Part shown: one piece after another, positions 1,571 to 36,310 of the stretch
How positions within the stretch are numbered: position 1 is the stretch's first letter
Layout: each line of letters starts with the position of its first letter
Source: a virus
Taxonomy: Duplodnaviria > Heunggongvirae > Uroviricota > Caudoviricetes
DNA: 37,037 nucleotides
Reading direction: 5' to 3' (one strand)
IMG/VR virus record: IMGVR_UViG_2541047915_000010
Location: 1 to 37,037 of that record
Translations under genes and position numbers: made by a program
The notes under the pieces: model-generated
What the model was told of the DNA's origin: nothing
Database searches by the model: none
The model's input: the letters and a program-made list of their open reading frames with translations, nothing else

Positions 1571-1619
1571 TCGTGAAACCCCAGCGTTACAAGACCACCA
1601 TGCCCCCAGCGTTCCATGA

Positions 1620-2303: not shown

Positions 2304-2317
2304 CGAGGTGTCATTTT

Positions 2318-2656: not shown

Positions 2657-2666
2657 CAGGTGCTTT

Positions 2667-2954: not shown

Positions 2955-2962
2955 AGGGCGTT

Positions 2963-3318: not shown

Positions 3319-3404
3319 CCGCGCAAATAAGCCCCCAGGTTAAATAAGAAAATGTGAAAACAATCCGCATTCGCGGAGGTATTCGCACACGCCAAGGAGG
3401 CGTA

Positions 3405-3850: not shown

Positions 3851-3991
3851 GCACCTCCAACTGCCGGAAACCACGTCGGGCTTCAGCAGCTCATCCGGCA
3901 GCAAAACAAACTCCATTAATTCCTGTTCCGGGCCTTTCCTGCACCTTGTGGCGGGAGGCCTTCGCACATCTGTAACAAGAGGATTGCCGCA

Positions 3992-4357
3992 ATGATTCTC
4001 GCCAACGACTTTCTTGAATACCTGCTCAACACAGAGCGTGATCTTGCCGTTCGCGTGCGTGAACGTTATGACATGTACCTGAAATCCCTGCCTGTACCGC
4101 AGCTCGCTGACGGAAAGATTGTTATTGATGGTCGCTACATGATTGACAGCCACGAGGGAAATTACAGGCTTTACCGCATTGAAGGTGGCACCCCGTCCGT
4201 TATTGGCATTTACCAGCGCCCATCCTCTGCAATCGTCGATGTGATTGCCGACAGCATCCGCATCACACATCGCCATGCCGACACAGAAGACACCGTGCTG
4301 GAAATTCAGCGGCTGGCTACAGTCTGCCGCGACACCCTGAATGGCATGACGAAGTAA
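3992..4357 (+). CDS. Hypothetical early-operon protein
   Basis: 121-aa ORF with an AAGAGGA RBS upstream; no motif recognised. Confidence 0.45.
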   Translation: MILANDFLEYLLNTERDLAVRVRERYDMYLKSLPVPQLADGKIVIDGRYMIDSHEGNYRLYRIEGGTPSVIGIYQRPSSAIVDVIADSIRITHRHADTEDTVLEIQRLATVCRDTLNGMTK

Positions 4358-4363
4358 ATCACT

Positions 4364-20212: not shown

Positions 20213-20813
20213 TTCGTTGTTACCACCATCAGCCAGCAATTTCATGCGTTGTGCCGAAGCCGTCGGAACACGCATTACAGACATTCCGGTAGACCTCAAC
20301 ACGCTGTGGTCGCCGGACACCTGCCCGGTGCATCTGCTGCCTTATCTCGCCTGGGCGTTTTCCGTTGACCGCTGGGATCGCAACTGGCCGGAAGAGACAA
20401 AGCGACAGGTGATTCGTGATGCATGGCTGATACACCGACACAAAGGGACCATCAGCGCACTGCGAAGAGCCGTGGAGCCTCTCGGTTACCTGATTGAAGT
20501 AAAGGAGTGGTGGCAACTCAACGAGGAGCCGGGAACATTTCGCATTGTTGTCGGAGTACTTGATCAGGGCATCACCGATGAAATGTATCAGGAACTTGAG
20601 CGCCTTATTGCGGATGCAAAACCAGTAAGTCGCCATCTGACGGGGCTGGCGATCAGCCTGAGTGTGAACGGAAAGATTTTCGTTGGTACGGGATGCTATC
20701 ACGGCGATGCCCTGACGGTTTATCCCTACACCCCGGAGTCCATTATTGTCGAAGGGGACTATTTCCCTGCCCCGGCCATTCATTTAATTGATAATCTGAG
20801 AGTAAACGCATGA
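20205..20813 (+). CDS. I: Baseplate protein I
   Basis: ORF 20172-20813 trimmed to the ATG at 20205 (RBS gaaggtggg), overlapping the J stop. Confidence 0.8.
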   Translation: MSNSLLPPSASNFMRCAEAVGTRITDIPVDLNTLWSPDTCPVHLLPYLAWAFSVDRWDRNWPEETKRQVIRDAWLIHRHKGTISALRRAVEPLGYLIEVKEWWQLNEEPGTFRIVVGVLDQGITDEMYQELERLIADAKPVSRHLTGLAISLSVNGKIFVGTGCYHGDALTVYPYTPESIIVEGDYFPAPAIHLIDNLRVNA

Positions 20814-22375
20814 CAGTGAAATACTACGCCATTCTGACTAATCAGGGCGCGGCACGACTGGCTAACGCGACGATGCTCGGCAGTAAGCTGAATCTGACGC
20901 AAATGGCCGTTGGTGATGCAAATGGTGTGTTACCAACACCAGACCCTGCACAAACAAAACTGATTAACCAGAAACGCATTGCACCGCTGAATCTTCTGAG
21001 TGTTGACCCTAACAATCAGAGCCAGATTATTGCGGAGCAAATCATCCCTGAAAACGAGGGAGGATTCTGGATCCGTGAGATTGGTCTTTATGATGATGAA
21101 GGTGTACTCATTGCGGTGGCAAACTGCCCGGAAACGTACAAACCGCAGTTGCAGGAAGGCAGTGGACGCACCCAGACTATCCGCATGATTCTGGTTGTCA
21201 CGAACACCGAAGCCATCACGCTGAAAATCGACCCGTCTGTGGTTCTGGCAACCCGCAAATATGTGGATGATAAAATATCAGAGCACGAACAATCACGACG
21301 TCACCCGGACGCCTCGCTGACCGTAAAAGGTTTTACTCAGTTAAGCAGTGCAATTAACAGTGAATCAGAAACACTGGCCGCAACACCGAAAGCGGTTAAG
21401 GCTGCATATGACCTGGCTAACGGGAAATATACCGCCCAGAACGCCACCACTACACAAAAAGGGATTGTTCAGCTCAGTAGCGCCACGAACAGCACGTCTG
21501 AAACGCTGGCAGCGACACCAAAAGCTGTTAAGGCGGTAATGGATGAAACGAACAAGAAAGCACCATTAAACAGCCCGGCACTGACCGGAACGCCAACAAC
21601 ACCAACAGCGCCACAGGGGACTAATAGTACCCAGATCGCAAGCACGGCTTTCGTTATGGCCGCGATTGCCGCACTTGTAGACTCGTCACCTGATGCACTG
21701 AACACGCTGAACGAACTGGCTGCGGCGCTGGGCAATGACCCGAATTTTGCGACCACCATGACTAACGCGCTTGCGGGTAAGCAACCGAAGGATGCCACCC
21801 TGACGGCGCTGGCGGAGCTTGCTACATCAGCAGATAAACTCCCATATTTTACAGGGGCAGATCGTGCCGCGTTAACCGCGTTGACAAGTGTTGGACGTGC
21901 CATTCTTGGCAAAACCAGCACTCAGGGAGTTCTTGATTACCTTGGTTTGGGGGAAGGCTCTGCACTGCCCGTTGGTGTACCCGTTCCGTGGTCCTCAGCA
22001 ACACCACCAACGGGCTGGCTGAAATGTAACGGTGCAGCATTTTCTTCTGAAATGTATCCCAGACTGGCAAGGGCTTATCCCACCAATAAATTACCGGATT
22101 TACGCGGTGAATTTATCCGTGGCTGGGATGATGGGCGCGGGATTGATGCGGGACGTACCCTGCTTTCAGGGCAGGATGGTACAAGTTTTTCTCATTACGG
22201 AGGTAATTTCGACATTGGGTCTGGTCATTCAATCAATAACTATGACCAAATTGTTTCTAACCAACCAGGCTTTTCCCGTTTTTCATTTGCAGGGCCTTCA
22301 CGAGGCGATGGGGTTAATTATGTAACCATTCGTCCTCGTAATATTGCGTTTAATTACATCGTAAGGGCAGCATGA
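20810..22375 (+). CDS. H: Tail fibre protein H (constant N-terminal part fused in this orientation to variable cassette SvA)
   Basis: 521 aa; internal repeat SETLAATPKAVKA twice; C-terminal region begins at crossover site 1 and ends with the shared TIRPRNIAFNYIVRAA tail. Confidence 0.85.
   Translation: MTVKYYAILTNQGAARLANATMLGSKLNLTQMAVGDANGVLPTPDPAQTKLINQKRIAPLNLLSVDPNNQSQIIAEQIIPENEGGFWIREIGLYDDEGVLIAVANCPETYKPQLQEGSGRTQTIRMILVVTNTEAITLKIDPSVVLATRKYVDDKISEHEQSRRHPDASLTVKGFTQLSSAINSESETLAATPKAVKAAYDLANGKYTAQNATTTQKGIVQLSSATNSTSETLAATPKAVKAVMDETNKKAPLNSPALTGTPTTPTAPQGTNSTQIASTAFVMAAIAALVDSSPDALNTLNELAAALGNDPNFATTMTNALAGKQPKDATLTALAELATSADKLPYFTGADRAALTALTSVGRAILGKTSTQGVLDYLGLGEGSALPVGVPVPWSSATPPTGWLKCNGAAFSSEMYPRLARAYPTNKLPDLRGEFIRGWDDGRGIDAGRTLLSGQDGTSFSHYGGNFDIGSGHSINNYDQIVSNQPGFSRFSFAGPSRGDGVNYVTIRPRNIAFNYIVRAA
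21930..21955 (+). other. DNA-invertase crossover site 1 (hix/gix-like, 12-2-12) inside H
   Basis: ttcttgattacc TT ggtttgggggaa; resembles hixL as I recall it (TTCTTGAAAACC AA GGTTTTTGATAA); marks the constant/variable junction of H. Confidence 0.6.
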
Positions 22376-22394
22376 AAACGTTGGTTTGGGGGAA
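22369..22394 (+). other. DNA-invertase crossover site 2 (same orientation as site 1), overlapping the H stop codon
   Basis: agcatgaaaacg TT ggtttgggggaa; identical right half-site and core to site 1. Confidence 0.55.
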
Positions 22395-22862
22395 GGCTCT
22401 GCGTTGCCCGTTGGTGTGCCCGTTCCATGGCCCTCAGCCACGCCGCCAACGGGGTGGCTGAAATGTAACGGTGCAGCATTTTCTTCTGAAATGTATCCCA
22501 GACTGGCAAAGGCCTACCCCACCAATAAATTACCGGATTTACGCGGTGAATTTATCCGTGGCTGGGATGATGGGCGAGGAATTGATGCGGCACGCGCTTT
22601 ATTGAGCATTCAAAACGGGATGTTGGAAAAACACCGCCATATTGTTGTAGCTAACGATGGATATGACACAAAGGATGAATGGGAGTTGGCCACGATTTTC
22701 AAAAAAACATATACGCAAGGCAGCGGGCTTGATGCCACAAATACAGGAGGGAGTTTGATTCCATCACCAACGCTTCATTCACGAGGAAGTATTGGTAACA
22801 CAGGTGGTAGTGAAACCCGCCCCCGCAATATTGCATTTAACTATATCGTAAGGGCGGCTTAG
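22386..22862 (+). CDS. Promoterless alternative tail-fibre C-terminal cassette SvB
   Basis: Begins inside crossover site 2 in the same frame as H relative to the site (LGEGSALPVGVPVPW...); shares the conserved N- and C-terminal segments with SvA and has a different central region. Confidence 0.6.
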   Translation: MGEGSALPVGVPVPWPSATPPTGWLKCNGAAFSSEMYPRLAKAYPTNKLPDLRGEFIRGWDDGRGIDAARALLSIQNGMLEKHRHIVVANDGYDTKDEWELATIFKKTYTQGSGLDATNTGGSLIPSPTLHSRGSIGNTGGSETRPRNIAFNYIVRAA

Positions 22863-22868
22863 TTATAT

Positions 22869-23480
22869 TCAACTGGCTGCTGCCAGTGGTATTTCCGGCA
22901 AGTTGATATCTGGTGCCATGTTTATATCCATTGCGTTCAGCGCGTCTATATAATCCAGCACGGCATTAAGCCGGGTGGTTTCTGCCTGCGTCAACTTCCG
23001 CCCGGCCTGCAACTTCAACTGAATCAGACTTATGGAAGCCATTGCCGCATCAGCCAGTGACTGACGCTTGGTTTCTGCCGCTTCTACTGCGGCACGATGT
23101 TGTGCCTCAGTATCTGTCACCCATTTTTCACCATCCCATTTATCGTATGGTGTTAACGGGGCGATAGTGGTTGTATTTTTCGGGTAGTCACCCAGCGCCG
23201 TGATTTCTTCGGTGTTTCCCGTGTCAGTGCTATAGACGGTTTCACCACGATGGTCTGGCGCATACTCCCATGAACTTAAATTCTCCGAACGGCGGATAGC
23301 ATAGCCCGCTTTATGTGCGCCCGGGGCATCTAAACAGGAATTTGCCGGAATACCGACACCCACAGCAAGATATTCAGTTGATTCGGAAATATATTCCCGT
23401 GTCTCACCATCATAGTTATAAACGACGATGTTTCCTGCCTGTACGGCAATAAGGTCATCATTTAATATCGCGTTATTCAT
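22869..23480 (-). CDS. Tail fibre assembly chaperone (Tfa; P2 G / Mu U family), copy 1
   Basis: 203 aa; C-terminal ...LTQAETTRLNAVLDYIDALNAMDI...PEIPL is the Tfa signature; co-oriented with and downstream of cassette SvC. Confidence 0.75.
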   Translation of the reverse strand: MNNAILNDDLIAVQAGNIVVYNYDGETREYISESTEYLAVGVGIPANSCLDAPGAHKAGYAIRRSENLSSWEYAPDHRGETVYSTDTGNTEEITALGDYPKNTTTIAPLTPYDKWDGEKWVTDTEAQHRAAVEAAETKRQSLADAAMASISLIQLKLQAGRKLTQAETTRLNAVLDYIDALNAMDINMAPDINLPEIPLAAAS

Positions 23481-23875
23481 TATGCGGTTCTCACAATATA
23501 ATTGAAGGCAATATTGCGTGGGCGGGTTTCATTCCCCTCTGAGGATTCAGTTCTGTATTGACTGGTAAATCTACCGTTAATTGCACCTTGCCGGACGGCG
23601 TTATCTGTCGACAACAGACTATCCCCTCCTTTGTCATTTGGCACCAGCACCGTGTTATCCCACGCATCCCATGACCGAATATTATGATAATGACTTCCTG
23701 TTAACCACCCCTGCATGCTTAAGATGCCCCTTCCGGCATCCACCCCGCGCCCATCATCCCAGCCACGGATAAATTCACCGCGTAAATCCGGTAATTTATT
23801 GGTGGGATAAGCCCTTGCCAGTCTGGGATACATTTCAGAAGAAAATGCTGCACCGTTACATTTCAGCCAGCCCGT
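23480..23875 (-). CDS. Alternative tail-fibre C-terminal cassette SvC (inner, left copy)
   Basis: Minus-strand ORF 23480-23965; from TGWLKCNGAAFSSEMYP onward it is fibre-like, while the part above 23875 is read-through of the complementary arm. Confidence 0.5.
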   Translation of the reverse strand, partial: TGWLKCNGAAFSSEMYPRLARAYPTNKLPDLRGEFIRGWDDGRGVDAGRGILSMQGWLTGSHYHNIRSWDAWDNTVLVPNDKGGDSLLSTDNAVRQGAINGRFTSQYRTESSEGNETRPRNIAFNYIVRTA

Positions 23876-23879
23876 TGGT

Positions 23880-24308
23880 GTGCCCGTTCCATGGCCCTCA
23901 GCCACGCCGCCAACGGGGTGGCTGAAATGTAACGGTGCAGCATTTTCTTCTGAAATGTACCCCAATCTGGCAAAGGCCTACCCCACCAATAAATTACCGG
24001 ATTTACGCGGTGAATTTATCCGTGGCTGGGATGATGGGCGCGGGGTGGATGCCGGAAGGGGCATCTTAAGCATGCAGGGGTGGTTAACAGGAAGTCATTA
24101 TCATAATATTCGGTCATGGGATGCGTGGGATAACACGGTGCTGGTGCCAAATGACAAAGGAGGGGATAGTCTGTTGTCGACAGATAACGCCGTCCGGCAA
24201 GGTGCAATTAACGGTAGATTTACCAGTCAATACAGAACTGAATCCTCAGAGGGGAATGAAACCCGCCCACGCAATATTGCCTTCAATTATATTGTGAGAA
24301 CCGCATAA
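23880..24308 (+). CDS. Alternative tail-fibre C-terminal cassette SvC' (inner, right copy)
   Basis: 142-aa ORF identical to SvC over most of its length; followed by tfa copy 2. Confidence 0.5.
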   Translation: MPVPWPSATPPTGWLKCNGAAFSSEMYPNLAKAYPTNKLPDLRGEFIRGWDDGRGVDAGRGILSMQGWLTGSHYHNIRSWDAWDNTVLVPNDKGGDSLLSTDNAVRQGAINGRFTSQYRTESSEGNETRPRNIAFNYIVRTA

Positions 24309-24919
24309 TGAATAACGCGATATTAAATGATGACCTTATTGCCGTACAGGCAGGAAACATCGTCGTTTATAACTATGATGGTGAGACACGGGAATATATT
24401 TCCGAATCAACTGAATATCTTGCTGTGGGTGTCGGTATTCCGGCAAATTCCTGTTTAGATGCCCCGGGCGCACATAAAGCGGGCTATGCTATCCGCCGTT
24501 CGGAGAATTTAAGTTCATGGGAGTATGCGCCAGACCATCGTGGTGAAACCGTCTATAGCACTGACACGGGAAACACCGAAGAAATCACGGCGCTGGGTGA
24601 CTACCCGAAAAATACAACCACTATCGCCCCGTTAACACCATACGATAAATGGGATGGTGAAAAATGGGTGACAGATACTGAGGCACAACATCGTGCCGCA
24701 GTAGAAGCGGCAGAAACCAAGCGTCAGTCACTGGCTGATGCGGCAATGGCTTCCATAAGTCTGATTCAGTTGAAGTTGCAGGCCGGGCGGAAGTTGACGC
24801 AGGCAGAAACCACCCGGCTTAATGCCGTGCTGGATTATATAGACGCGCTGAACGCAATGGATATAAACATGGCACCAGATATCAACTTGCCGGAAATACC
24901 ACTGGCAGCAGCCAGTTGA
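24308..24919 (+). CDS. Tail fibre assembly chaperone (Tfa), copy 2
   Basis: 203-aa protein 100 percent identical to the minus-strand copy at 22869-23480 (track translations are identical). Confidence 0.75.
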   Translation: MNNAILNDDLIAVQAGNIVVYNYDGETREYISESTEYLAVGVGIPANSCLDAPGAHKAGYAIRRSENLSSWEYAPDHRGETVYSTDTGNTEEITALGDYPKNTTTIAPLTPYDKWDGEKWVTDTEAQHRAAVEAAETKRQSLADAAMASISLIQLKLQAGRKLTQAETTRLNAVLDYIDALNAMDINMAPDINLPEIPLAAAS

Positions 24920-24925
24920 ATATAA

Positions 24926-25405
24926 CTAAGCCGCCCTTACGATATAGTTAAATGCAATATTGCGGGGGCGGGTTTCACTACCACCTGTGTTACCAATACT
25001 TCCTCGTGAATGAAGCGTTGGTGATGGAATCAAACTCCCTCCTGTATTTGTGGCATCAAGCCCGCTGCCTTGCGTATATGTTTTTTTGAAAATCGTGGCC
25101 AACTCCCATTCATCCTTTGTGTCATATCCATCGTTAGCTACAACAATATGGCGGTGTTTTTCCAACATCCCGTTTTGAATGCTCAATAAAGCGCGTGCCG
25201 CATCAATTCCTCGCCCATCATCCCAGCCACGGATAAATTCACCGCGTAAATCCGGTAATTTATTGGTGGGGTAGGCCTTTGCCAGTCTGGGATACATTTC
25301 AGAAGAAAATGCTGCACCGTTACATTTCAGCCACCCCGTTGGCGGCGTGGCTGAGGGCCATGGAACGGGCACACCAACGGGCAGCGCAGAGCCTTCCCCC
25401 AAACC
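24926..25405 (-). CDS. Promoterless alternative tail-fibre C-terminal cassette SvB' (inverted copy of SvB)
   Basis: Minus-strand ORF 24926-25459; identical in protein sequence to SvB from GLGEGSALPVG to the C-terminus; abuts inverted crossover site 5 in frame. Confidence 0.6.
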   Translation of the reverse strand, partial: GLGEGSALPVGVPVPWPSATPPTGWLKCNGAAFSSEMYPRLAKAYPTNKLPDLRGEFIRGWDDGRGIDAARALLSIQNGMLEKHRHIVVANDGYDTKDEWELATIFKKTYTQGSGLDATNTGGSLIPSPTLHSRGSIGNTGGSETRPRNIAFNYIVRAA

Positions 25406-25419
25406 AACGTTTTCGTCTT
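25394..25419 (-). other. DNA-invertase crossover site 5 (inverted relative to sites 1 and 2)
   Basis: Plus strand ttcccccaaacc AA cgttttcgtctt, i.e. reverse complement aagacgaaaacg TT ggtttgggggaa. Confidence 0.6.
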
Positions 25420-25473
25420 TATCCCTACCTATACCAACTATGTATTTTTCACGAAACAAAGAGGATGTTTTTT

Positions 25474-26073
25474 ATGCAAATTGGCTATATTCGTGTGTCA
25501 ACAAATGACCAGAACACGGATTTACAACGCAATGCACTGAACTGCGCAGGATGTGAACTGATTTTTGAAGATAAAATCAGCGGAACGAAATCAGCCAGAC
25601 CGGGATTGAAAAAACTGCTCAGAACGCTATCAGAAGGAGATACGCTGGTTGTCTGGAAGCTGGACAGACTGGGCAGAAGTATGAAACACCTGATCACGCT
25701 TATTGAGGAATTGCGGGAAAAAGGTGTTAATTTCCGTAGCCTGACGGACAGCATTGACACATCAACACCCATGGGGCGTTTCTTTTTTCACGTCATGGGG
25801 GCTTTAGCCGAAATGGAACGTGAATTAATTGTAGAGCGTACACTGGCCGGGCTGGCAGCAGCACGCGCACAAGGACGCATTGGCGGACGTCGCCCGAAGT
25901 TGACAAAAGAACAACACGAGCAAATAGCGAGGCTGATTAAAAACGGTCATGACAGGAAACAACTGGCGATCATTTACGACATCGGCATATCGACGATTTA
26001 TCGTTATCACCCTGTAGGCGATATACAGGCTGAAGAAACAACCAGGCAGACTCAGGAAAATGAAAACCGCTAA
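25474..26073 (+). CDS. Serine DNA invertase (Hin/Gin/Cin/Pin family)
   Basis: ORF 25279-26073 trimmed to the ATG at 25474 (gagga RBS 9 nt upstream); MQIGYIRVSTNDQNTDLQRNAL... with catalytic Ser in RVST and a C-terminal HTH (GISTIYRY); about 199 aa. Confidence 0.9.
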   Translation: MQIGYIRVSTNDQNTDLQRNALNCAGCELIFEDKISGTKSARPGLKKLLRTLSEGDTLVVWKLDRLGRSMKHLITLIEELREKGVNFRSLTDSIDTSTPMGRFFFHVMGALAEMERELIVERTLAGLAAARAQGRIGGRRPKLTKEQHEQIARLIKNGHDRKQLAIIYDIGISTIYRYHPVGDIQAEETTRQTQENENR

Positions 26074-26093
26074 TCTGACCATTAGCGGTTTTG
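26062..26093. terminator. Bidirectional terminator between convergent invertase and U
   Basis: Perfect 12-bp stem aaaaccgctaat / attagcggtttt with loop ctgacc; A-run on one side and T-run on the other. Confidence 0.6.
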
Positions 26094-26099
26094 CGTTAA

Positions 26100-26594
26100 T
26101 CAAAACAGCCCTTTAACGGAGCTGGCCGCGCTGTTAAGGGATGATGTGACCTTATCTTTGAAGCCGGACAGCATATCACTGAACGATGAGGATTGCAGGC
26201 GCTCCCGCAAATCCTCATCACAGCGTTCAAGGGTCAGTGAAAATTCTATCTTTTTCGCCTTACCGTAGCGATCAAACTCGGAGCGGGTCGTATTCGTTTC
26301 AGTCAGTACATACATGCCGTAAATCTGCCCGACACCATCAATCAGAGGCCAGGGGCGTCCTGTATATGCCTGCGTGGTCAGCAACGAAAGCGACACTTCG
26401 CCACCTGTAATTTCAGGATAAAGCACACCAGAAAGAACGATGCGATCATCACCTGCACCGATATACTGCCAGCTTGCTGAACGGTTAACGCGTTCATTTT
26501 TCACATGCCGCCAGCTTTTGTTTTGCTGTAACTGCTGATGCGGCAGCGTGCGCAGCTCAAAAACAAACATGCCGTAGATCATCATCATGGCCAT
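26100..26594 (-). CDS. U: Tail protein U
   Basis: N-terminal MMIYGMFVFELRTLPHQQLQQNKSWRH parallels P2 gpU (MMMLGLFVFRLRTLPYQELQRQRSWRH); the true start is probably one of the Met codons at 26585-26588 given the gaggag RBS. Confidence 0.8.
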   Translation of the reverse strand: MAMMMIYGMFVFELRTLPHQQLQQNKSWRHVKNERVNRSASWQYIGAGDDRIVLSGVLYPEITGGEVSLSLLTTQAYTGRPWPLIDGVGQIYGMYVLTETNTTRSEFDRYGKAKKIEFSLTLERCDEDLRERLQSSSFSDMLSGFKDKVTSSLNSAASSVKGLF

Positions 26595-26600
26595 GACTCC

Positions 26601-29417
26601 TCAATCTTTATCGTAAAAACTGCCACGCCCGGCACGGGCGCGCCGTTCCATTTCTGCCCTGACCATTTCACCGACCAGTTTCGCCAGTTCGCGGGGATTC
26701 TGTGTAACAACGTTATGCAGATGAACATGAATTTCACCGCCAAATCCGGAGGCAACAGGCTCCCGGTTACGGGAAGTTGCAGGAACTGATGCCACTGGCG
26801 ATCGTATGGCCTCTGCCACCGGGCGGGAGCTGGCCGCAACAACAGGGACCAGCGCCGGAGGCAGCGGAGCCGGAACCACAGGTGTGATATTAATTGCGGG
26901 GGCAGGCTTACTGACCTGCGCAATCTTCCGCTCCTGCCACTCCCCACGAACAGCAAGTGCGCGGGGCAGGTTCTTAAAGACAATATCGCCGGGGCCAATA
27001 CGTTTTTTCGTCTCATCAACCAGCTTACCTGTGTTATCAGCAATTTTGCTGAGTCTGCGTAGCGTACCGGTATTGCTGTCTGTGAGCGGTTTGTTGTCTT
27101 TGGGTTTATCACCTCCGGTGCCATTGCCATTTTCCACAGGCTTCGGCGGATTGATTTTCGCCAGGTCCCCCTGAAGCAAGGCAACCTTGTCCTGAAGAAT
27201 GGCCGCACGCTGTGCGTCTTCGATTTTCTTGCGCGCCCTTTCCGCTTCATCCGGAAGCACACCGAGCTTTTCAAGTATCCACGCCAGCGTATCCAGCAAC
27301 ATTTTTGCAGGTGTCAGAACAAGTTGTAACGCACCGCCAAGAACATTACCGAATGTCTCGCCAGCACTGGTACATTTATCCAGCGTTTCCTTGCTGGACT
27401 CCATCGGTGACAGCAGCGATTTAAACCAGTTAAACACCTGGCTGATCCCACTCCCGATTGCGTCAAAAACAGGACCAAACCGTTCAAAGGTTTCGCGCAA
27501 CGGGGTCAGCCTTTCCATAATCCCGCTGAACACCCCGGCAAAAAATGCCCTGATGGGATCCCAGTATTTCCAGATAAGGACGGCAGCTCCGGCAAGCGCA
27601 GCCACGATAAGACCAACCGGACTGAACAGCGCCCCGATAGCGCCTCCCAGTAAAGAAACGGAACCCGTCACCATTCCCCATAGTGCTGGCAGGACCCTGA
27701 CAGCATTCATTGATCCGGTCAGGAGAGAAAAACCAAGACGCAGTTTTGCCAGCGGACCAGCAAGCACACCAATAGCCAGCGACAACGAGCCAACCGTTGC
27801 AGTCATTGCCAGCAACGCACCGCCTGCTATCAGTAGCTGGCGCGTCAGTGCCGGATGGGCCTGCGCCAGCGCCGTCACCCTTGATACCACCCGCGTGAGC
27901 CACTGCGTGACAGAACGCAGCGGACCGTCAATCAGATCTGCAATGCGGATGCGCAACCCTTCCCATGCACTGCCGAGTGATTTCAGATCGCCGTCAAGGT
28001 TGTTGGCCATGACCTTTGCTGTGCGTTCAGCCTCACCGCGCGCGCCTTCAAGTTCTTTTCTCAGTTTAGGTAAGGAACCGTCACCCGCTGCATCAACGAG
28101 CGCCATAAACGATGTGAAAGCCTCTTCTCCGGCAATGTCCTTAAAGAACGATACCCGGTCAACTTCCCCGTATTTGCGGGTGGCTTTATAAAGGTCGGCC
28201 AGCACATCCTCCATCGGGCGCATTTTGCCGTTCGCGTCAGAGACTGCCACACCAAGCTCTTTCAGCGCCTCTGCTGCTGCCTTTGGCGGTGATGCCAGAC
28301 GAGCCAGGCTGGCACGCATTGCCGTCCCGGCATCACTCCCTCTGATACCCATATTCGCCAGCACACCCGCCATCGCTGCGGCCTGCTCCAGCGATATTCC
28401 CAGCTTACCCGCCACCGGACCTGCATATTTCATGGTTTCGCCCAGTGCGCGAAGGTCAGTGTTGGTACGGGTAAATGCTGCGGTGAGCGTGTCGCCAACC
28501 CGGTCCATCTGGTCAGCAGAAAGGCCGAACTGCGTCAGGATATTTGAGCCAATATCCGCCGTCTCGCCGAGATCCATGCCGCCAGCCGTTGCCATGCTCA
28601 GCACGCCCGGAAGCGCAGCCTGAATGGCCTGCGGAGTGAAGCCAGCCATTGCAAGAAATGCCTGCCCACTGGCGGCATCGCCTGCGGTGAACTGCGTTTC
28701 AGAGCCAAGTTTTAACGCCTGCTCACGCAGCGCCTTAAACTGCGGGCTGTTCTGGTCGATTCGCGTCAGTGCCTGAACGCGGGACATCTCTTTGCCGAAC
28801 CCGATCGCAGGCTGCAAAAAACGCCCGGCAGCATAGCCGCCAGCCGCTGCCGCACCAATTGCCAGCGCACCACCTGTTTTCAGTTTTCCCGCGGTTTCCC
28901 GCACGCGCGAATACCGCTCACGCGCCCGCGTTACACGCGCAAGCGCCTGCCGTTCGCGTTCAAGCTGGTTGTTGTACTGTTCGGTGCGTCTGATGGCCTG
29001 CTGGATGGTGTTATCGCTGCCTGTCAGGGAAATGCCGTGGCGTTTCAGCTCTCCGCCAAGCTCCCGCATTTTCTGAATTTCCCGTGTGCGCAATTCATTC
29101 AGGCGTTCAAGCCGGGTGCTTAACTGCTGCATCAGCTTTTGTTGTTTTTCGCTGAGCACTGTACCCGTGCGTTGTAACTGATTAAGGGCGTTAAGCTGGC
29201 GTCGCGCTTTCACGATACCCGCATCCGCTTTACTGACAGCGTCGCGGGCGCGCTCAAATGAACGCGCCTGACGCTCGAGATTTTTGATCGCCCCCTGCGT
29301 TCGCTGGATGGAGTCACCAAACTGCCCCATCAGGCGGCGGGCGTTTTCGGCAGGTCGGGTCAGCCTGTCAACGGCGCTGAAAGCGACCCGGATATCAAGA
29401 GTCTTCATTGTCTGCAT
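26601..29417 (-). CDS. T: Tail tape measure protein T
   Basis: ORF 26601-29444, about 940 aa, coiled-coil N-terminal half and Gly/Ala-rich hydrophobic segments; start set at an internal Met (29417 or 29408) downstream of the E' stop; start uncertain. Confidence 0.8.
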   Translation of the reverse strand: MQTMKTLDIRVAFSAVDRLTRPAENARRLMGQFGDSIQRTQGAIKNLERQARSFERARDAVSKADAGIVKARRQLNALNQLQRTGTVLSEKQQKLMQQLSTRLERLNELRTREIQKMRELGGELKRHGISLTGSDNTIQQAIRRTEQYNNQLERERQALARVTRARERYSRVRETAGKLKTGGALAIGAAAAGGYAAGRFLQPAIGFGKEMSRVQALTRIDQNSPQFKALREQALKLGSETQFTAGDAASGQAFLAMAGFTPQAIQAALPGVLSMATAGGMDLGETADIGSNILTQFGLSADQMDRVGDTLTAAFTRTNTDLRALGETMKYAGPVAGKLGISLEQAAAMAGVLANMGIRGSDAGTAMRASLARLASPPKAAAEALKELGVAVSDANGKMRPMEDVLADLYKATRKYGEVDRVSFFKDIAGEEAFTSFMALVDAAGDGSLPKLRKELEGARGEAERTAKVMANNLDGDLKSLGSAWEGLRIRIADLIDGPLRSVTQWLTRVVSRVTALAQAHPALTRQLLIAGGALLAMTATVGSLSLAIGVLAGPLAKLRLGFSLLTGSMNAVRVLPALWGMVTGSVSLLGGAIGALFSPVGLIVAALAGAAVLIWKYWDPIRAFFAGVFSGIMERLTPLRETFERFGPVFDAIGSGISQVFNWFKSLLSPMESSKETLDKCTSAGETFGNVLGGALQLVLTPAKMLLDTLAWILEKLGVLPDEAERARKKIEDAQRAAILQDKVALLQGDLAKINPPKPVENGNGTGGDKPKDNKPLTDSNTGTLRRLSKIADNTGKLVDETKKRIGPGDIVFKNLPRALAVRGEWQERKIAQVSKPAPAINITPVVPAPLPPALVPVVAASSRPVAEAIRSPVASVPATSRNREPVASGFGGEIHVHLHNVVTQNPRELAKLVGEMVRAEMERRARAGRGSFYDKD

Positions 29418-29924
29418 TCCCGCTGCGAAGTGCCGCCCGCTCACGCCAGCTAACCACTTCGCCGGGCGTCATCATGAAGATTTCGGCGGGCGACCAGTTA
29501 AAAATAACGGCAATATCTGCCACAAAGTCTTCTATGTGCTCAAAGCACACAACCGTGATCAGGCTTCCGTCACCTGTTCGTTCTTCCCGCCAGAGTCCGC
29601 ACCGCTCAAAAAATTTACGGCAACCACACATAACTGAATAAAGTCACGGGATGCCATTTTTTTGATCGTCACTTCATCCAGTCGCGGTGATGTCACGCGT
29701 GACAGCAGCGTAAACATGGATTCCGCTTTCAGATTCAGCACATCAGACAGCGACAAATCTCGCAGAGATCCAGCCTGCTCAATAGCCCCGGTGATCTCCA
29801 CATACGTGATTTTTTCGCCGCCTCGCTCAATGGGTTGGGTAAGTTTTACGCCACGCTCACTGGTTTCTTTCACAGTGTCAGCAACTACCGTGTTTTCGGT
29901 ATCGATGTTTTTCGTCTCTTTCAT
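29395..29924 (-). CDS. E+E' frameshift fusion product (programmed -1 frameshift)
   Basis: The -1 frame ORF 29395-29631 overlaps the 3' end of E; slippery heptamer TTTTTTG on the coding strand at 29607-29613, as in P2 E/E' and other tail chaperone pairs. Confidence 0.6.
29559..29924 (-). CDS. E: Tail assembly chaperone E
   Basis: 121-aa ORF between FII and T, as P2 gpE. Confidence 0.75.
   Translation of the reverse strand: MKETKNIDTENTVVADTVKETSERGVKLTQPIERGGEKITYVEITGAIEQAGSLRDLSLSDVLNLKAESMFTLLSRVTSPRLDEVTIKKMASRDFIQLCVVAVNFLSGADSGGKNEQVTEA
29607..29613 (-). promoter_or_regulatory. Slippery heptamer T-TTT-TTG for the E/E' -1 ribosomal frameshift
   Basis: Plus strand caaaaaa = minus strand ttttttg; in E frame ..aat ttt ttg.., E' frame ..aaa ttt ttt gag.. 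Confidence 0.6.
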
Positions 29925-29978
29925 CAGGAAACTCCTTTCAGTCAGAGGCGACGCACTGCGCCGCCTGCATATTACTTA

Positions 29979-30491
29979 TCAGCCAAGCCCAAGCGCGGAA
30001 CGGATGCGATCGGGCACAATGTCCTTGCCGTCCTTCCGGTAAATGAAGTTCAGCAGGTCAATCTCCCACAACGGACGATCGTTAACACTCAGCTTGTAGT
30101 AGGTGTTTTTAATGGCGTAAGTGTGTGATGTGGCTTCGCCCTGTTTGGCTTCCCCCATATCAATTTCCGTCACACGTCCGCGCATTTCGACTTCATACAG
30201 GTCGCTTTCTGCATCGGTGTAGTATTCACCCGCAAAACGCAGCAGCGTGCCGTCAATCGTGCCGCCATACTTAAGGAACAGCTCACGAACTGCGCCCCCC
30301 ATGACAAAGCTCGCATCAAGCGCGGAGTCGTCCAGACCGAGATCAATACTTACCGCCCCCATCATGCCACCACCCCGGTAGCTGTCGGTTTTGCGCGTCA
30401 GCTTAGGCAAAGTGACGGACGTCACCTTACCCACTTCGTTTTCACCATCCACAAACAGCGTAAAAAAGCGAAGATGTTTTGGCACAGCCAT
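29979..30491 (-). CDS. FII: Tail tube protein FII
   Basis: 170 aa (P2 FII about 172 aa); immediately downstream of the sheath gene. Confidence 0.85.
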   Translation of the reverse strand: MAVPKHLRFFTLFVDGENEVGKVTSVTLPKLTRKTDSYRGGGMMGAVSIDLGLDDSALDASFVMGGAVRELFLKYGGTIDGTLLRFAGEYYTDAESDLYEVEMRGRVTEIDMGEAKQGEATSHTYAIKNTYYKLSVNDRPLWEIDLLNFIYRKDGKDIVPDRIRSALGLG

Positions 30492-31675
30492 CAGGCACCT
30501 CCCAGCACCGCAAATGCGGGTTCAAAGTATTCATCAGTAAACGTCTGGTAAAGCTCCATGTCTTCCAGTGGCGGAACGGGCGTATATTTGTAGCGAATAC
30601 GCACACGCCCCTGACGTAAATCCGTGGTGCTGTTATCCACCACGTCATACCAGCACTCCGCGCCAATCAGTTTCCCGGCAGTCACCAGTGAATCCAGTTT
30701 TGCCCTGATGGCACTGATAACATCCTTCACGTTCGCAGGCGTCAGTGGACTGTCGATGGTTTCAAACTGCGCTTCCGCAATTGAATCAGCCAGCACCTGT
30801 GCGGTTCGGGTATACACCTCAAAGATGTAGGCGTTCGTTTCCGGTGTGCGGTTGCCCCAGAAGCGGAACCCGTTGCGACGAATAATGGTCGTGATTTCTT
30901 TGTTGTTGAGGCTGTTGGCATCGCTGTCTTCGGCCTGCAACGACCAGAACACATGCCTCGACATCCCCAGCACATTTTTAACCGGAACGTTGGACAGTGA
31001 TTTGTGCCATCCCTGCTCATGGTCAATGTACGCACGAAGGCCGCACGCATAGGCAGGCGCGGGGAACGTTTCGTTTTTGCCACTTTTCGGGTTGTAGGCG
31101 ATGAAGTCCGGCCATAAGAGCATCACCTCACGTTCGTTGAATTTCTGGCGGTAGGTAATCGCCTCAGCCATCGTGTTACAGCCGTGACATGAGGCATACA
31201 CAAACGCGCGCAGTTTACCTGCAATCACGCACAGGGATTTTGTTACAGCCTCCGTGTCCAACTCCGGCGCGGCCAGAATACGCGGACGGTATCCGATGCT
31301 TTCATCCTGCTCTGCAACAAGCAGCGCATACATCCCCGTATAGCTGCCGTCATCCTCAGAACCACCGATAACCAGTTGATCCTGCGTCTTTCCGCCTTCT
31401 TCTTTGTGTTCAGCCACGCGAACGACGATCACCTTTGTGCTCACCTGGTCTGCGATGGCCTTAAGCGCACGATAAAGCGTCCCCGTTGTCCCGCATTTTC
31501 CCAGCACGTCATTGACGCGGGTCAGCAGTGTGGGCTTGTTCAGCGGGAACAGCTTCGCGTCCGCATCATCCGCCGTTGCCACGATACCGATAACGCTGGA
31601 ATCAACATCGTTAATCGCTGTTACCAGGTCGGTATTTTCCGTAACACGGGCACCATGAAAACGAGTTTCACTCAT
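30491..31675 (-). CDS. FI: Tail sheath protein FI
   Basis: 394 aa; LRAFVYASCHGCNTMAEAITYRQKF, EQGWHKSLSNV, RRNGFRFWGNRT, YKYTPVPPLE align with P2 FI as I recall it. Confidence 0.9.
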   Translation of the reverse strand: MSETRFHGARVTENTDLVTAINDVDSSVIGIVATADDADAKLFPLNKPTLLTRVNDVLGKCGTTGTLYRALKAIADQVSTKVIVVRVAEHKEEGGKTQDQLVIGGSEDDGSYTGMYALLVAEQDESIGYRPRILAAPELDTEAVTKSLCVIAGKLRAFVYASCHGCNTMAEAITYRQKFNEREVMLLWPDFIAYNPKSGKNETFPAPAYACGLRAYIDHEQGWHKSLSNVPVKNVLGMSRHVFWSLQAEDSDANSLNNKEITTIIRRNGFRFWGNRTPETNAYIFEVYTRTAQVLADSIAEAQFETIDSPLTPANVKDVISAIRAKLDSLVTAGKLIGAECWYDVVDNSTTDLRQGRVRIRYKYTPVPPLEDMELYQTFTDEYFEPAFAVLGGA

Positions 31676-31832
31676 AGCTTCAGCCCCTTGTATCCGTTAA
31701 ATGATTCGGCAACAATCATCACCCACCACGCGCGTAATCTCACCCCTGCGCCATTCTCCCGCCACGGCGACAACAAAAAGCAGTAACCCCCTCCGCACGC
31801 ACATGCGACCATGCCATACAGGGAGGGAACAG
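31676..31832. promoter_or_regulatory. Divergent intergenic region between FI (minus) and D (plus); expected late promoters
   Basis: Positional only; 157 bp between divergent start codons. Confidence 0.3.
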
Positions 31833-32942
31833 ATGACCGACACCACCATGCAATTGCTCAGTCAGGGCACAGACCCCGTGAAAATGCCGGATTTTGATAT
31901 TCTCGCGGAGGGTAAAACGCTGTCAGGCATGGCAGAGCGCCTGATGAGCCTGTCACTGACCGACAACCGGGGATTTGAGGCGGACCAGCTCACCATCACG
32001 CTGGATGATGCGGATGGTCAGTTGCAGCTACCGCCACGGGGCGCGCGCCTGACGGTTCTCATTGGCTGGAAAGGAGAACCGCTGACAGAAAAAGGCACTT
32101 ACATTGTTGATGAAATTGCTCATGAAGGACCGCCCGACAGACTGACCATTTCAGCCAGAAGCGCAGATTTTCGGGATGAATTTAACGTCAAGCGCGAAGT
32201 ATCTTGGCATGATGTGACCGTTGAACGCGTGGTGTCTGCAATTGCTCACCGATACGGCCTGAAACCGCAAATCAGCGAAATGCTGATGGATATTGAAATC
32301 GACCACGCTGACCAGACCGAAGAAAGCGACATGTCCTTCCTTACGCGCATGGCGGAAATGCTGGGCGCAATCACCACGGTAAAAAGCGGCAATCTGTTAT
32401 TCATCATGCCAGGTGGTGGCGTGAACGCACAGGGGCAGCCGTTGCCCTCGTTCGCCATTACACGCAGCAGCGGCGATCGCCATCAGTTCCGCATTGCTGA
32501 CCGCGAGGCGTATACGGGGGTACGCGCCTACTGGCTTGATCTTAATTACGGGAAAAAGAAAAAAGTCAGCGTGAAACGCCGCAAACCGCCAAAACCCAAA
32601 AAGGAGAAAAGCAGCAGTCGGGAAGGCGACTATATGGAAGGTGCGGAAGGCAACGTGTTTGTGTTACGCAAGACTTATCAGAACGAGCAGGCAGCAAGAC
32701 GCGCAGCGGCGGCAAAGTGGCAGCAGCTACAACGCGGAGCCGCATCATTCTCCATCACGCTGGCGCGTGGTCGTGCAGAACTCTATCCCGAAATGCATGG
32801 CACAGTGACAGGCTTTAAAAGCGAGATTGATTATCAGGACTGGATTATTGCAAAAGCCGAGCACACCATTGATAACAGCGGCTTTACCACGCAGCTTGAA
32901 CTTGAAGCAAAAATCCCGGAATGGATAGCAGAAACAGAATAA
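31833..32942 (+). CDS. D: Tail protein D (late gene D, gpD family)
   Basis: ORF 31701-32942 trimmed to the ATG at 31833 (RBS gggaggg); MPDFDILAEGK...LSLTDNRGFEADQL...ISARSADFR, basic KKKK..KPKKEK stretch and FTTQLELE end, as in P2 gpD. Confidence 0.9.
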   Translation: MTDTTMQLLSQGTDPVKMPDFDILAEGKTLSGMAERLMSLSLTDNRGFEADQLTITLDDADGQLQLPPRGARLTVLIGWKGEPLTEKGTYIVDEIAHEGPPDRLTISARSADFRDEFNVKREVSWHDVTVERVVSAIAHRYGLKPQISEMLMDIEIDHADQTEESDMSFLTRMAEMLGAITTVKSGNLLFIMPGGGVNAQGQPLPSFAITRSSGDRHQFRIADREAYTGVRAYWLDLNYGKKKKVSVKRRKPPKPKKEKSSSREGDYMEGAEGNVFVLRKTYQNEQAARRAAAAKWQQLQRGAASFSITLARGRAELYPEMHGTVTGFKSEIDYQDWIIAKAEHTIDNSGFTTQLELEAKIPEWIAETE

Positions 32943-33069
32943 ATCTCTTAAAAATATTATTTTTGAGATGTGCTTCTACACTGACAGTAAGAACAAAAGA
33001 TAATGTATCAGCCCACTAGATGTCAGAGGTTGGGGCATCAACCAGATGCTAACAATAATACGGATGTTT

Positions 33070-33106
33070 TTCCCACATGACAGAGGAAGTCAAGTATAAT
33101 CTTCAC
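33070..33106 (+). promoter_or_regulatory. Putative sigma-70 promoter for the 1039-aa ORF
   Basis: Perfect -10 hexamer TATAAT at 33095-33100; -35 is weak; about 90 bp upstream of the ATG at 33191. Confidence 0.3.
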
Positions 33107-33190
33107 AGTCCATCCCGTCCAAGGGAATATGACTCAATAGTAAAAGTTCCAGTTTAGTTAGTAGACCCACACTTTATAGAAGAGTAATTC

Positions 33191-36100: not shown

Positions 36101-36310
36101 CAACCATTTTCTCTTGTGGTAAAGGATAACTACTTCACTAAATTAATTATTAGAGAATATGATAATAATAAGTTAGTAAATGTCACTTCAGAGAATATCA
36201 AAAGTGACTCAGATAAATTCAAGCTAACTCTTAACTATGAGTTGAATATAGTATTTGAAGGAAACGCTGATTTAAAAATAGCTCACTCGCAAAGAGTGAC
36301 ATCAGAATAA
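33191..36310 (+). CDS. Large uncharacterised membrane-anchored protein (N-terminal 4 predicted TM helices plus a soluble domain of about 850 aa); cargo gene between D and ogr
   Basis: Uninterrupted 1039-codon ORF in a strongly AT-rich segment (Lys/Asn/Ile-rich); hydrophobic helices at roughly aa 50-66, 91-116, 132-154 and 162-192; no catalytic motif recognised by eye. Confidence 0.8.
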   Translation: MIGQFLSATEILAKNYVRNKMVKNPFYSNLKWNFIEKNIIRLTSSPVKSVLCISAFSFVLLYVGYLNELFIKNNLLHYFPFRHSLTEWQTTILSGQLTIIGIVYPLVIGLVSVLFQKKADRKIAQTAYQRYSGFMLAGLSGLFLSGFILLSVLIKTVFGSYLYGIACLISILWLLINIVLSIWFFIVSLEILDDVKRQIIIKRYIAFEIVMPHICNKISAKLRLYPIYQKHNYSNLEIKQADYKGEYISVASGYSKEDELSLYHRPFQLTLNLINCQLKKKNHFASFVIGDNRAKETESTGKILFSVKNIKPDSLLIKILKQCFYRAPIKGGDFSVSLTMQAITADTYMYLRDSDLISFDDAISALINNFNNLCDLYFFQDDNTNNNFLLITTELFERSFQYEFSDEVYKISNNSMDKINLSERFFELCLWSGVRIINNRKHLISNELCIYMGITRSQWSILTEWFRNNQSLLNASLRSRYNRILRTYTTVWEQYQESINFRFCNTENSDLFELFCKTQLQELPSMIIDATQTRDPSTIDTAVDLINRWQHSMNIDSHSVEKYSYKGQLFNPGFFISKKLNFNSDREWFNIAIINALTDMRICTCLYLTSRINTSDKLMTHYIKLILEGKLIDQTGGYETPTEEIDNASQLIKILIRICLWTWSENMEHNGWMNSLARRLRDYDKTDMVMGRVYSNVFDCGFIDMEQSWVQLLLIFSNKNDSVSKEIKEAIENNYITYREKQRLIGVLSKICNSIEYTKIKLTLTLDDLQTKKENLRKLLQEHINMLKKDLDMRLQDAAIDVHRLDSTARKTSEHLRKRIKKTLPLSLFKSIDFKQASDCFTKHKISIKIDKEPYAEGIESIPYINEGDIQADLILKDIQRIILSNLFSTGCSQHTVIEDFNMLIDHIKSSADLAGKLVLVMSKEIFQQYNRMLFDNPNLRELMRKNDDGSMNITTESGTCKVYFLPFVNQPFSLVVKDNYFTKLIIREYDNNKLVNVTSENIKSDSDKFKLTLNYELNIVFEGNADLKIAHSQRVTSE

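Follow-up and report, generated by a model that had tools for sequence, protein, structure and literature searches.

The DNA analysed here (the window, 37,037 nt) carries what appears, from its sequence, to be the tail-fibre inversion switch of a P2-like E. coli prophage, a three-site system of the Gin family in which the segment between crossover sites s2 and s3 (SvB, tfa, and SvC) forms a near-perfect palindrome. This segment was probably duplicated in mirror image, via a fold-back or microhomology strand switch or an unequal exchange at a short inverted repeat. The palindrome is probably an incidental, short-lived rearrangement rather than a working part of the switch. No new recombination mechanism is revealed; the duplication is probably an accident of DNA copying inside a known switch.

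Cassettes and palindrome arms

The fibre gene H (20810-22375, plus strand; 521 aa) in its present state consists of the constant part Hc fused to SvA, shows the Pfam domains Phage_tail_fib, Phage_fiber_2, and Collar, and is collinear with the H gene of the E2348/69 P2-like prophage (98.8%). The SvB cassette, which has a Collar domain and carries s2, was found at 22386-22862 (plus strand). Next to it lies the left copy of tfa, which encodes a tail fibre assembly chaperone (22869-23480, minus strand; Pfam Caudo_TAP) and is situated downstream of the left SvC copy (23480-23880, minus strand, by alignment). The product of the left tfa is identical to WP_001057723.1, annotated likewise in relatives. 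The second set comprises the right SvC copy, SvC' (23880-24308, plus strand; by ORF, Pfam, and alignment), a tfa' identical to the left copy (24308-24919, plus strand), and SvB', which carries s3 (24926-25405, minus strand); the latter two were assigned by ORF and mirroring. The gene at 25474-26073 (plus strand) encodes a 199-aa serine DNA invertase of the Gin/Hin family with Pfam domains Resolvase (1.5e-51) and HTH_7, and its residues 1-185 match the Mu Gin structures 3UJ3 and 4M6F with E values of about 1e-90. Apart from the prophage integrase (596-1720), the window encodes no tyrosine recombinase. This cassette anatomy agrees with a preliminary description of the DNA, which had also correctly reported an identical, inverted tfa pair. 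The SvB pair, likewise described there as identical, is so at the protein level, while its DNA differs by one synonymous mismatch (22404/25384).

A repeat search detected one inverted repeat, with arms at 22374-23878 and 23910-25414 of 1505 nt each that are 99% complementary and are separated by a 31-nt spacer (23879-23909). A 1.5-kb inverted repeat is far above chance expectation, and all mirror sub-blocks of the ca. 3-kb near-perfect palindrome in the preliminary description fell within these arms. When the arms were mirrored base by base, eight mismatches were found. Besides the synonymous one in SvB, six cluster at 23807-23828 (mirror positions 23960-23981), and the remaining one is at 23870/23918. 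The mirror is perfect over 22405-23806 (1402 nt), and this zero divergence appears to indicate a very recent event.

The two SvC copies lack a crossover site and differ in their conserved segments. The left SvC does not start until the second short-inverted-repeat arm, and the alignment showed its conserved 5' segment to be SvA-type. The right SvC' is complete from the first repeat arm (23871) on, from which point it is 99.3% identical to EC9682; missing are its crossover site and the 14 nt that would separate the site from this arm. Its conserved segment, of a type different from that of the left SvC, is 100% identical in SvB of D72 and EC9682. At the protein level, two residues distinguish the copies (PRLARAYP versus PNLAKAYP). 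These differing conserved segments provide evidence that the two arms may well be physically distinct copies.

Crossover sites and output of the switch

Exact crossover cores (TTGGTTTGGGGGAAGG) were present only at 21942 (plus), 22381 (plus), and 25392 (minus), and none was present at the palindrome centre, as the preliminary description had stated for its three canonical sites; the chance expectation for such cores was 0.28 at up to three mismatches. The two plus-strand sites and the single minus-strand site are 26 bp long with a 2-bp core. Site s1 (TTCTTGATTACC TT GGTTTGGGGGAA; 21930-21955, plus strand) lies inside H at the Hc/SvA boundary, s2 (AGCATGAAAACG TT GGTTTGGGGGAA; 22369-22394, plus strand) overlaps the SvA stop codon at the outer edge of the left arm, and s3 (AAGACGAAAACG TT GGTTTGGGGGAA; 25394-25419, minus strand) is inverted relative to s1 and s2 and lies just upstream of the invertase gene. 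All three have the exact core, align with 14 sites from five relatives, and match the EC958 Phi2 sites.

The locus was compared with that of E2348/69, for which four isomers and three fibre C-termini have been demonstrated by PCR and sequencing, all four isomers coexisting in populations (Goldberg et al. 2014, PMC4272514). Over H-SvA-s2-SvB-tfa-SvC, the two loci are 98.8% identical at the nucleotide level, with the same sites, invertase, and flanking gpI and gpU/tape-measure genes in both. However, the order in E2348/69 is Hc-SvA-s2-SvB> <tfa <SvC-s3-invertase, with each part in single copy and SvC having its own site. The distance from s2 to s3 is 3026 nt in the window as against about 1562 nt in E2348/69, which corresponds to twice the segment minus about 98 nt. 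The unduplicated parental arrangement is present in E2348/69, its EPEC1 derivative, and D72, in which Hc and SvC are fused and followed by tfa. The comparison of cassette order with related prophages, proposed in the preliminary description, thus revealed relatives that carry the s2-s3 segment once; it is single-copy in E2348/69 and all other relatives examined, with the number of sites equal to the number of cassettes in each. In the window, a site precedes SvA, SvB, and SvB', but neither SvC copy. This departure from the one site per cassette of the relatives argues that the locus is a damaged member of the Gin/Cin/Pin/Min-type inversion systems and not a separate family. Among genomes more than 99% identical to the right flank of the window, VG38-53E1, the one inspected, has a different, non-invertible fibre module and was set aside as a candidate for the closest relative.

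Inversions were simulated for both arrangements. The single-copy E2348/69 locus gave four isomers with three C-termini, in agreement with the PCR-verified result (PMC4272514), whereas the window gave four isomers with only two fibre tips, SvA and SvB. SvC and its tfa are, as computed, locked out of the switch, which bears out the earlier statement that SvC cannot be fused to H, and inversion between s2 and s3 only flips the near-symmetric block. In all four simulated isomers of the window, one tfa copy was sense-oriented downstream of H, as compared to two of the four in E2348/69. This difference raises the possibility that the palindrome is a selected architecture, either providing sense tfa in every inversion state or representing a nascent mirror-image cassette pair. 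However, the SvB state and one SvA state of E2348/69 have tfa antisense, so these tips are evidently independent of a co-transcribed tfa. Besides, tfa follows only SvC in all relatives, and the rearrangement eliminates SvC, the one tip accompanied by tfa. With the structure found in one genome only and with zero divergence over 1402 nt suggesting a very recent event, selection for this architecture is extremely improbable.

The central junction and the origin of the duplication

The centre of the palindrome is a single 47-nt element, CCCGTTGGTG-N27-CGCCAACGGG (23871-23917, plus strand; by motif scan and alignment), which is common to both SvC copies and identical to the element of SvB at 22407-22453. 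Each conserved segment contains one copy of the motif pair CCCGTTGGYG...CRCCAACGGG (at 21968, 22407, 23871, and 25335), and none is expected by chance. The short inverted repeat consists of CCCGTTGG (Pro-Val-Gly), 31 nt, and CCAACGGG (Pro-Thr-Gly), and is carried by every cassette because of its coding sequence. The bottom strand at the centre was computed to fold into a hairpin (dG -19.6 kcal/mol, z -3.2). An ORF at 23480-23965 spans the junction and equals WP_024235758.1.

Alignment with E2348/69 resolved the locus into collinear parts: window positions 20800-23873 are collinear with E2348/69 positions 1-3073, and 23870-25414 are the reverse complement of 1575-3119. The window is thus E2348/69[1-3073] plus the reverse complement of [1575-3119] plus the rest, and the copies overlap only in the 47-nt element. 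At the novel junction, the joined parts have only GCCCGTTGGTG (11 nt) in common. Since both copies overlap in this single element, the junction is best read as the mark of a strand switch by fold-back or microhomology and not of an invertase crossover.

The preliminary description had offered three explanations for the centre. A cryptic crossover site was rejected; the centre agrees with the site consensus at 11 of 26 positions and contains neither the A-tract nor GGGGGAA. Recombination via the short motif cccgttggtg/caccaacggg holds in so far as the motif is the junction, but the motif appears to have served as a substrate (hairpin or microhomology) for an illegitimate strand switch and not as a regular crossover site. 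The third explanation, a rearrangement product, is supported by the finding that the locus equals the E2348/69 arrangement plus an inverse duplicate of the s2-s3 segment.

The invertase itself might have joined two quasi-sites (CCCG TT GGTG) on sister molecules in opposite inversion states. The motif has CGTTGGT and the central TT in common with the true sites, P1 Cin reportedly uses quasi-sites with the same central dinucleotide (Iida and Hiestand-Nauer 1987), and the product of such a join would be identical to the observed structure. However, quasi-sites would be required in both partners, and with 11 of 26 consensus positions the A-tract and GGGGGAA half-site ends are absent on both sides. 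The reaction would also be intermolecular, and intermolecular reactions are strongly disfavoured by Gin-type invertases with Fis/enhancer. Moreover, although thousands of prophages have the motif in each of their cassettes, the searches revealed no further junction of this kind. An invertase join is therefore considered very unlikely. Two further schemes were rejected. If the invertase had exchanged sister molecules at canonical sites, whole-arm palindromes or cointegrates that keep the sites would be expected. For a two-step route, in which a site-centred perfect palindrome is followed by a central deletion between motif copies, no plausible first step was identified.

Based on these results, the mirror-image duplication of the s2-s3 segment would have arisen by a join at the short inverted repeat common to all cassettes, within the conserved 5' portion of SvC. 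Two routes may be envisaged. In the first, a 3' end, nascent or resected, that stopped at the first repeat arm would fold back onto the second; the segment would then be copied backwards out to the SvB conserved segment and its site, and synthesis would return to the original template via about 200 nt of homology at s2. In the second, two sister copies with opposite inversion states would undergo an unequal exchange, using the same 10-11 nt of microhomology. Either route would yield the structure precisely as observed, in which the 47-nt element stands once at the centre and each outer edge has a natural site. These edges fall on s2, s3, and the conserved segments of roughly 200 nt, and their sole mark is the mismatch at 22404/25384; a homology-guided return to the template leaves no scar. 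An additional step, whether gene conversion or more template switching, has to be assumed for the seven mismatches beside the centre, which may represent a later gene-conversion patch from SvA. Events of this kind have precedents. Tandem inversion duplications have reportedly been observed in Salmonella. For E. coli, Darmon et al. 2010 (PMC3315005) document inverted duplications of the DSB-hairpin and fold-back type at palindromes that are short or interrupted, and Lin et al. 2001, as it is cited in that paper, describes inverted duplications of the fold-back/DSB-hairpin kind.

Occurrence of the junction and relation to known systems

The junction 30-mer TTTCAGCCAGCCCGTTGGTGTGCCCGTTCC and a degenerate version of it gave no match in IMG/VR, GTDB species genomes, or JGI metagenomes, while the normal site-plus-motif pattern, used as a positive control, gave 45 matches in 25 viral stretches. 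A 211-nt centre query gave no spanning match in 5,426 complete E. coli genomes and 50,697 phage records, and its alignments start exactly at 23870. The best partial match, COL60J, is a differently scrambled locus with six sites and no palindrome at the motif, and was rejected as a second instance. Among 15 billion proteins, the chimeric ORF (WP_024235758.1) was present on one contig only. A protein search with the chimeric N-terminus, which as a search of 90% cluster representatives is a weak negative, returned only normal cassettes over the conserved half. No literature was found on the assembly, scaffold, or protein accessions. The junction thus appears to be unique to one strain, represented by a draft scaffold of assembly GCA_000460795.1.

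Short inverted repeats seed in-vitro fold-back chimeras, the arms are perfectly identical over 1402 nt, and the structure is known from one draft assembly only. These facts are also compatible with an assembly or library artefact, in which a normal single-copy segment in mixed orientations gives a palindromic contig through fold-back chimeras or a mis-join. Populations of the near-identical E2348/69 contain four isomers simultaneously (PMC4272514), and the merging of alternative-allele contigs makes artefactual duplications in such regions (Forde et al. 2014, PMC4134206). However, such a merge would retain the crossover sites, whereas here the sites and the adjoining 14 nt are absent. An artefactual join would be expected at a repeat of assembler length or at a contig end or gap, with identical arms; the overlap was 11 nt, the arms carry eight mismatches, and the region is located 1.5 Mb into a scaffold of 2.56 Mb, with no N in the window. 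With only 11 nt in common at the join, too short an overlap, a k-mer or overlap assembler could not create the junction without reads spanning it. Seven of the arm differences fall within about 70 nt of the centre, and together with the unlike SvC conserved segments they would be unexpected from one physical copy. Fold-back chimeras are, in addition, normally rare reads and not the consensus. The short overlap and the differing inner arm sequences thus argue that the junction exists in the reads, and an artefact, although it deserves consideration, is unlikely.

The window shares with Gin (Mu G), Cin (P1 C), Pin (e14), Min (p15B), and EC958 Phi2 (PMC4134206) a Gin-like serine invertase, 26-bp sites with a 2-bp core, a constant fibre 5' part, exchangeable Collar 3' cassettes, and a conserved repeat of roughly 200 bp per site. 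The mirror-image Sv-U units of Mu and P1 are diverged and each has a site, whereas the mirror copies in the window are nearly identical and the inner pair is without a site. Goldberg et al. (PMC4272514) call the E2348/69 locus a shufflon, and in R64-type shufflons too, invertible cassettes give one protein alternative C-termini. Unlike the R64 type, which uses the Rci tyrosine recombinase and sfx repeats, the window has Gin-type sites and a recombinase with a Resolvase domain, that is, of the serine type, and identity with an R64-type shufflon was ruled out. In its junction, the window resembles fold-back/DSB-hairpin duplications, Salmonella tandem inversion duplications, and yeast ODIRA (PMC4689423), which likewise have a pre-existing short inverted repeat at the centre, a spacer retained once, and microhomology at the junction. 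It differs from them in lying inside a programmed inversion system and in that the second junction would have relied on ca. 200 nt of inverted homology already in place (site and conserved segment), which would explain a clean two-copy palindrome in place of a triplication or whole-arm duplication.

Laboratory work predicts that such palindromes are cleaved by SbcCD at every replication, and the persistence of this one in a wild isolate is somewhat unexpected. If physically real, this near-perfect, kilobase-scale, short-spacer palindrome is a rare natural case in the chromosome of a wild E. coli, and its origin is cleanly readable, at a short coding inverted repeat. It would also be a case in which a programmed inversion system loses repertoire by ordinary replication error, one of three tips becoming unreachable. 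That the hairpin motif CCCGTTGG-N31-CCAACGGG is a recurrent hotspot seeding mirror-image cassette duplications, with this locus as a first step toward Sv-tfa units like those of Mu G and P1 C and toward multi-cassette arrays, before the copies diverge and regain sites, seems doubtful, and we regard it as a speculative idea. For annotation, the chimeric 'tail fiber protein' WP_024235758.1 is half antisense sequence, and cassette counts in such loci should not be equated with the number of usable fibre variants.

The switch locus and its relatives

The window encodes the integrase, gpA, portal, terminase, P2-type capsid, baseplate V/W/J/I, sheath, gpU, tape measure and gpD of a P2-like prophage. 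Gene H (20810-22375) matched Phage_tail_fib, Phage_fiber_2 and a C-terminal Collar domain; Collar domains were also found in the loose cassettes, the alternative 3' ends (SvA, SvB and SvC) that encode the fibre tips. Two 203-aa ORFs, the tfa genes (22869-23480 and 24308-24919), encode Caudo_TAP chaperones, and an ORF at 25474-26073 encodes a serine recombinase (Resolvase and HTH_7) that matched Mu Gin structures at E about 1e-90. Exact copies of the crossover core TTGGTTTGGGGGAAGG occur at only three positions, 21942(+), 22381(+) and 25392(-) (s1, s2 and s3); together with 12 nt on its other side, the core forms the 26-bp site NNNNNGAAAACG-TT-GGTTTGGGGGAA, which is the same in the relatives. 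Sites of this type were tabulated for the EC958 prophage Phi2 (PMC4134206). With its serine invertase, 26-bp sites and Collar-domain cassettes, the locus belongs to the Gin/Cin/Pin/Min class, and an R64-type shufflon in the strict sense was ruled out since the locus has no tyrosine recombinase.

In the chromosome of E2348/69 (EPEC O127:H6) and the EPEC1 derivative (98.8% identity), the order was Hc-s1-SvA-s2-SvB> <tfa <SvC-s3-invertase, where Hc is the constant part of H; each element is single-copy and the third site is carried by SvC. Sequencing and PCR of the E2348/69 locus revealed four coexisting variants with three alternative C-termini (Goldberg et al. 2014, PMC4272514). Our in-silico inversions agreed with that study, giving four isomers with tips of 521, 537 and 531 aa, and tfa lay directly downstream of the SvC fusion only. 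The switch itself is thus already known, having been experimentally verified in a 98.8%-identical prophage. D72 carries an Hc-SvC fusion followed by tfa and an inverted SvB, while EC9682 and N31 have four and five cassettes, respectively. The number of sites equalled that of cassettes in E2348/69/EPEC1, D72, EC9682 and N31 (3, 2, 4 and 5); the window has three sites against five cassette copies.

In every relative examined (E2348/69, D72, EC9682 and N31), the tail-fibre assembly gene follows SvC only. Since no such gene comes after SvA, SvB or the extra cassettes in EC9682 and N31, the Collar-domain tips they encode apparently need no co-transcribed chaperone to fold. Escherichia coli COL60J (NZ_CP092244.1; locus positions 2400-5700) has a prophage of the same family in which six crossover sites are present, tfa is not annotated and several truncated pieces of cassettes are labelled as pseudogenes. 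This further, strongly rearranged form of the switch shows that such loci are prone to scrambling.

Geometry and centre of the palindrome

A repeat finder returned one long inverted repeat in the window, with 1505-nt arms (22374-23878 and 23910-25414) that are 99% complementary and separated by a 31-nt spacer. The preliminary description, which had placed a palindrome with duplicated cassettes and tfa at 22383-25405, was therefore right in coordinates and gene content, the arms being slightly wider. Base-by-base mirroring of the sequence located eight arm mismatches, one at 22404/25384, six in 23807-23828 (mirror 23960-23981) and one at 23870/23918, and the mirror was perfect over 22405-23806 (1402 nt). 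The two tfa ORFs are identical and the SvB pair encodes the same protein; the SvC pair differs at two residues.

In pairwise comparison, window positions 20800-23873 were collinear with 1-3073 of the E2348/69 locus, 23870-25414 was the reverse complement of 1575-3119, and 25200-26100 picked up again at 2937. From these three blocks, the two copies of the s2-s3 segment overlap by E2348/69 interval 3073-3119, a 47-nt element CCCGTTGGTG-N27-CGCCAACGGG. One such element lies in the conserved 5' part of each cassette (21968, 22407 and 25335), and the centre, where the two SvC copies meet head to head, holds a single element (23871-23917) in plus orientation, identical to the SvB copy. In an alignment of all conserved segments, the right-arm copy, SvC', was complete starting with the first repeat arm, the left SvC started at the second, and only GCCCGTTGGTG (an 11-nt overlap) was common to the two joined sequences. 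Both SvC copies lack a site and the 14 nt separating site from first arm. The bottom strand of the centre gave the expected hairpin (dG -19.6 kcal/mol, z -3.2). The short inverted repeat in SvC of E2348/69 is degenerate (CCAGCAGG) and therefore could not form the hairpin.

For this siteless centre, a cryptic site and a rearrangement had both been proposed. No cryptic canonical site was found there: 11 of the 26 consensus positions match, CGTTGGT being shared and the A-tract and GGGGGAA absent, so that the former proposal is not supported. An invertase event at a quasi-site is highly improbable. The latter proposal was supported, as the window corresponds to the E2348/69 arrangement with s2-s3 copies overlapping by the 47-nt element.

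The left SvC conserved segment is SvA-type from the repeat arm through to the cassette-specific part, and that of SvC' is of a type found at 100% identity in SvB of D72 and EC9682. The ca. 190-nt conserved segments by the crossover sites (21956-22160, 22395-22600, 23700-23880 and 23871-24080 in the alignment of 5' segments) are mosaics shuffled between cassettes and strains, which indicates that gene conversion among cassettes is probably frequent; judging from the sequences, it is evidently this process that shuffles them. A single gene-conversion patch later than the duplication, or additional template switching while it took place, may account for the seven inner mismatches.

Origin of the mirror duplication

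NCBI scaffold KE702029.1 (2.56 Mb; assembly GCA_000460795.1) contains a stretch identical to the window; the palindrome region lies 1.5 Mb from the scaffold start, and the N count of the window is 0. Among about 15 billion proteins, the junction-spanning ORF (WP_024235758.1) occurred in one contig and normal 152-aa SvC ORFs in hundreds. No centre-spanning match was obtained in the complete E. coli genomes or phage records searched, and exact and degenerate junction patterns were not found in three contig collections, in which the normal arrangement gave 45 matches. Being unique is compatible with a recent accident as well as with an artefact. Caution is called for, as a palindrome with ca. 1.5-kb arms and a 31-nt spacer would be expected to serve as a substrate of SbcCD at each replication (PMC3315005). 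Against an artefact, the join overlap is only 11 nt, so that reads containing the join must exist; in the ca. 70 nt next to the centre, the conserved segments of the two SvC copies differ, and the join sits exactly where a biological fold-back would put it. Forde et al. warn of artefacts from merging alternative orientations (PMC4134206), but such a merge would retain the sites, which the window join lacks. We consider a real rearrangement probable and an artefact rather unlikely. In the public annotation of the source assembly, WP_024235758.1 is a 161-aa 'tail fiber protein' (23480-23965, -); it is an annotation artefact of the palindrome, since its first ca. 28 residues are an antisense translation of the other SvC copy.

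We infer two routes to the rearrangement, each giving exactly the product in the window. In a fold-back, the parent would be in the SvC> tfa> <SvB orientation, and a 3' end, extended leftward through SvC or exposed by break resection, would terminate in CACCAACGGG and snap back onto CCCGTTGG, 31 nt behind. With its own strand as template, it would then be extended across SvC, tfa and SvB as far as the SvB conserved segment and site, where homology of ca. 200 nt to s2 and the conserved segment of s2 would permit return to the original template. In an unequal exchange, the same 10-11 nt of microhomology would serve for recombination between sister copies in opposite inversion states, which are found together in cultures (E2348/69 locus, PMC4272514). 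By either route, the centre would retain a single spacer and the outer edges would carry natural sites, as found in the window sequence.

In E. coli, short or interrupted palindromes have been shown to lie at the centre of inverted duplications that form via hairpins once DNA has been degraded from a break (Darmon et al. 2010, PMC3315005); ODIRA in yeast is a related process (PMC4689423). The window duplication would belong to this documented class. Lin et al. 2001, cited by Darmon et al. 2010, reportedly described inverted duplications of the same class in E. coli, and Kugelberg et al. 2010 are said to have described tandem inversion duplications in Salmonella, a related process. The novelty lies in a mirror duplication specific to this strain, ascribed to a known class of replication/repair error, that would cripple part of the switch. 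It is a tidy natural case of a palindrome seeded by a short repeat and a warning for annotators, and raises no new question. It is doubtful that the hairpin motif in the coding sequence repeatedly seeds mirror-image duplication of cassettes and has in this way given rise to Mu G/P1 C-type architectures.

Consequences for the fibre and other features of the prophage

Simulation of all possible inversions between oppositely oriented sites in the window gave four isomers and two H proteins only, Hc-SvA (521 aa) and Hc-SvB (537 aa); the s2 x s3 inversion only flips a nearly symmetric block. The earlier claim that SvC cannot be joined to H held, as an Hc-SvC fusion appeared in no isomer, and the rearrangement would thus take away one of three host-range variants. 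One tfa copy was sense-oriented in every isomer. This is unlikely to be of use to the phage, since the SvB state of E2348/69 has antisense tfa and tfa lies downstream of SvC only in all relatives; a selected design is hardly credible.

A gene for a ParM/StbA-type actin-like segregation ATPase (7263-8222, +) lies directly 3' of replication gene A. The tail operon (sheath, tube, E, tape measure and gpU; 26100-31675, -) is on the opposite strand to the baseplate/fibre genes and gpD (31701-32942, +), a layout from which the P2 gene order differs. It is a family trait unconnected with the palindrome, because the relatives share it.

At the prophage end, gpD/ogr/hok are followed by a 33% GC island (33000-36310; prophage about 54% GC) in a variable cargo slot that holds GmrSD or DUF2971 genes in other strains. 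The 1039-aa ORF in the island (33191-36310, +) matched no Pfam, PADLOC or NCBIfam model, and its sole PDB match was marginal (E 0.15; metal-binding region of PDE4D, residues 484-537). The ORF is a candidate for an undescribed anti-phage cargo gene. A 4.1-kb stretch here was present in five of 5,426 complete E. coli genomes.
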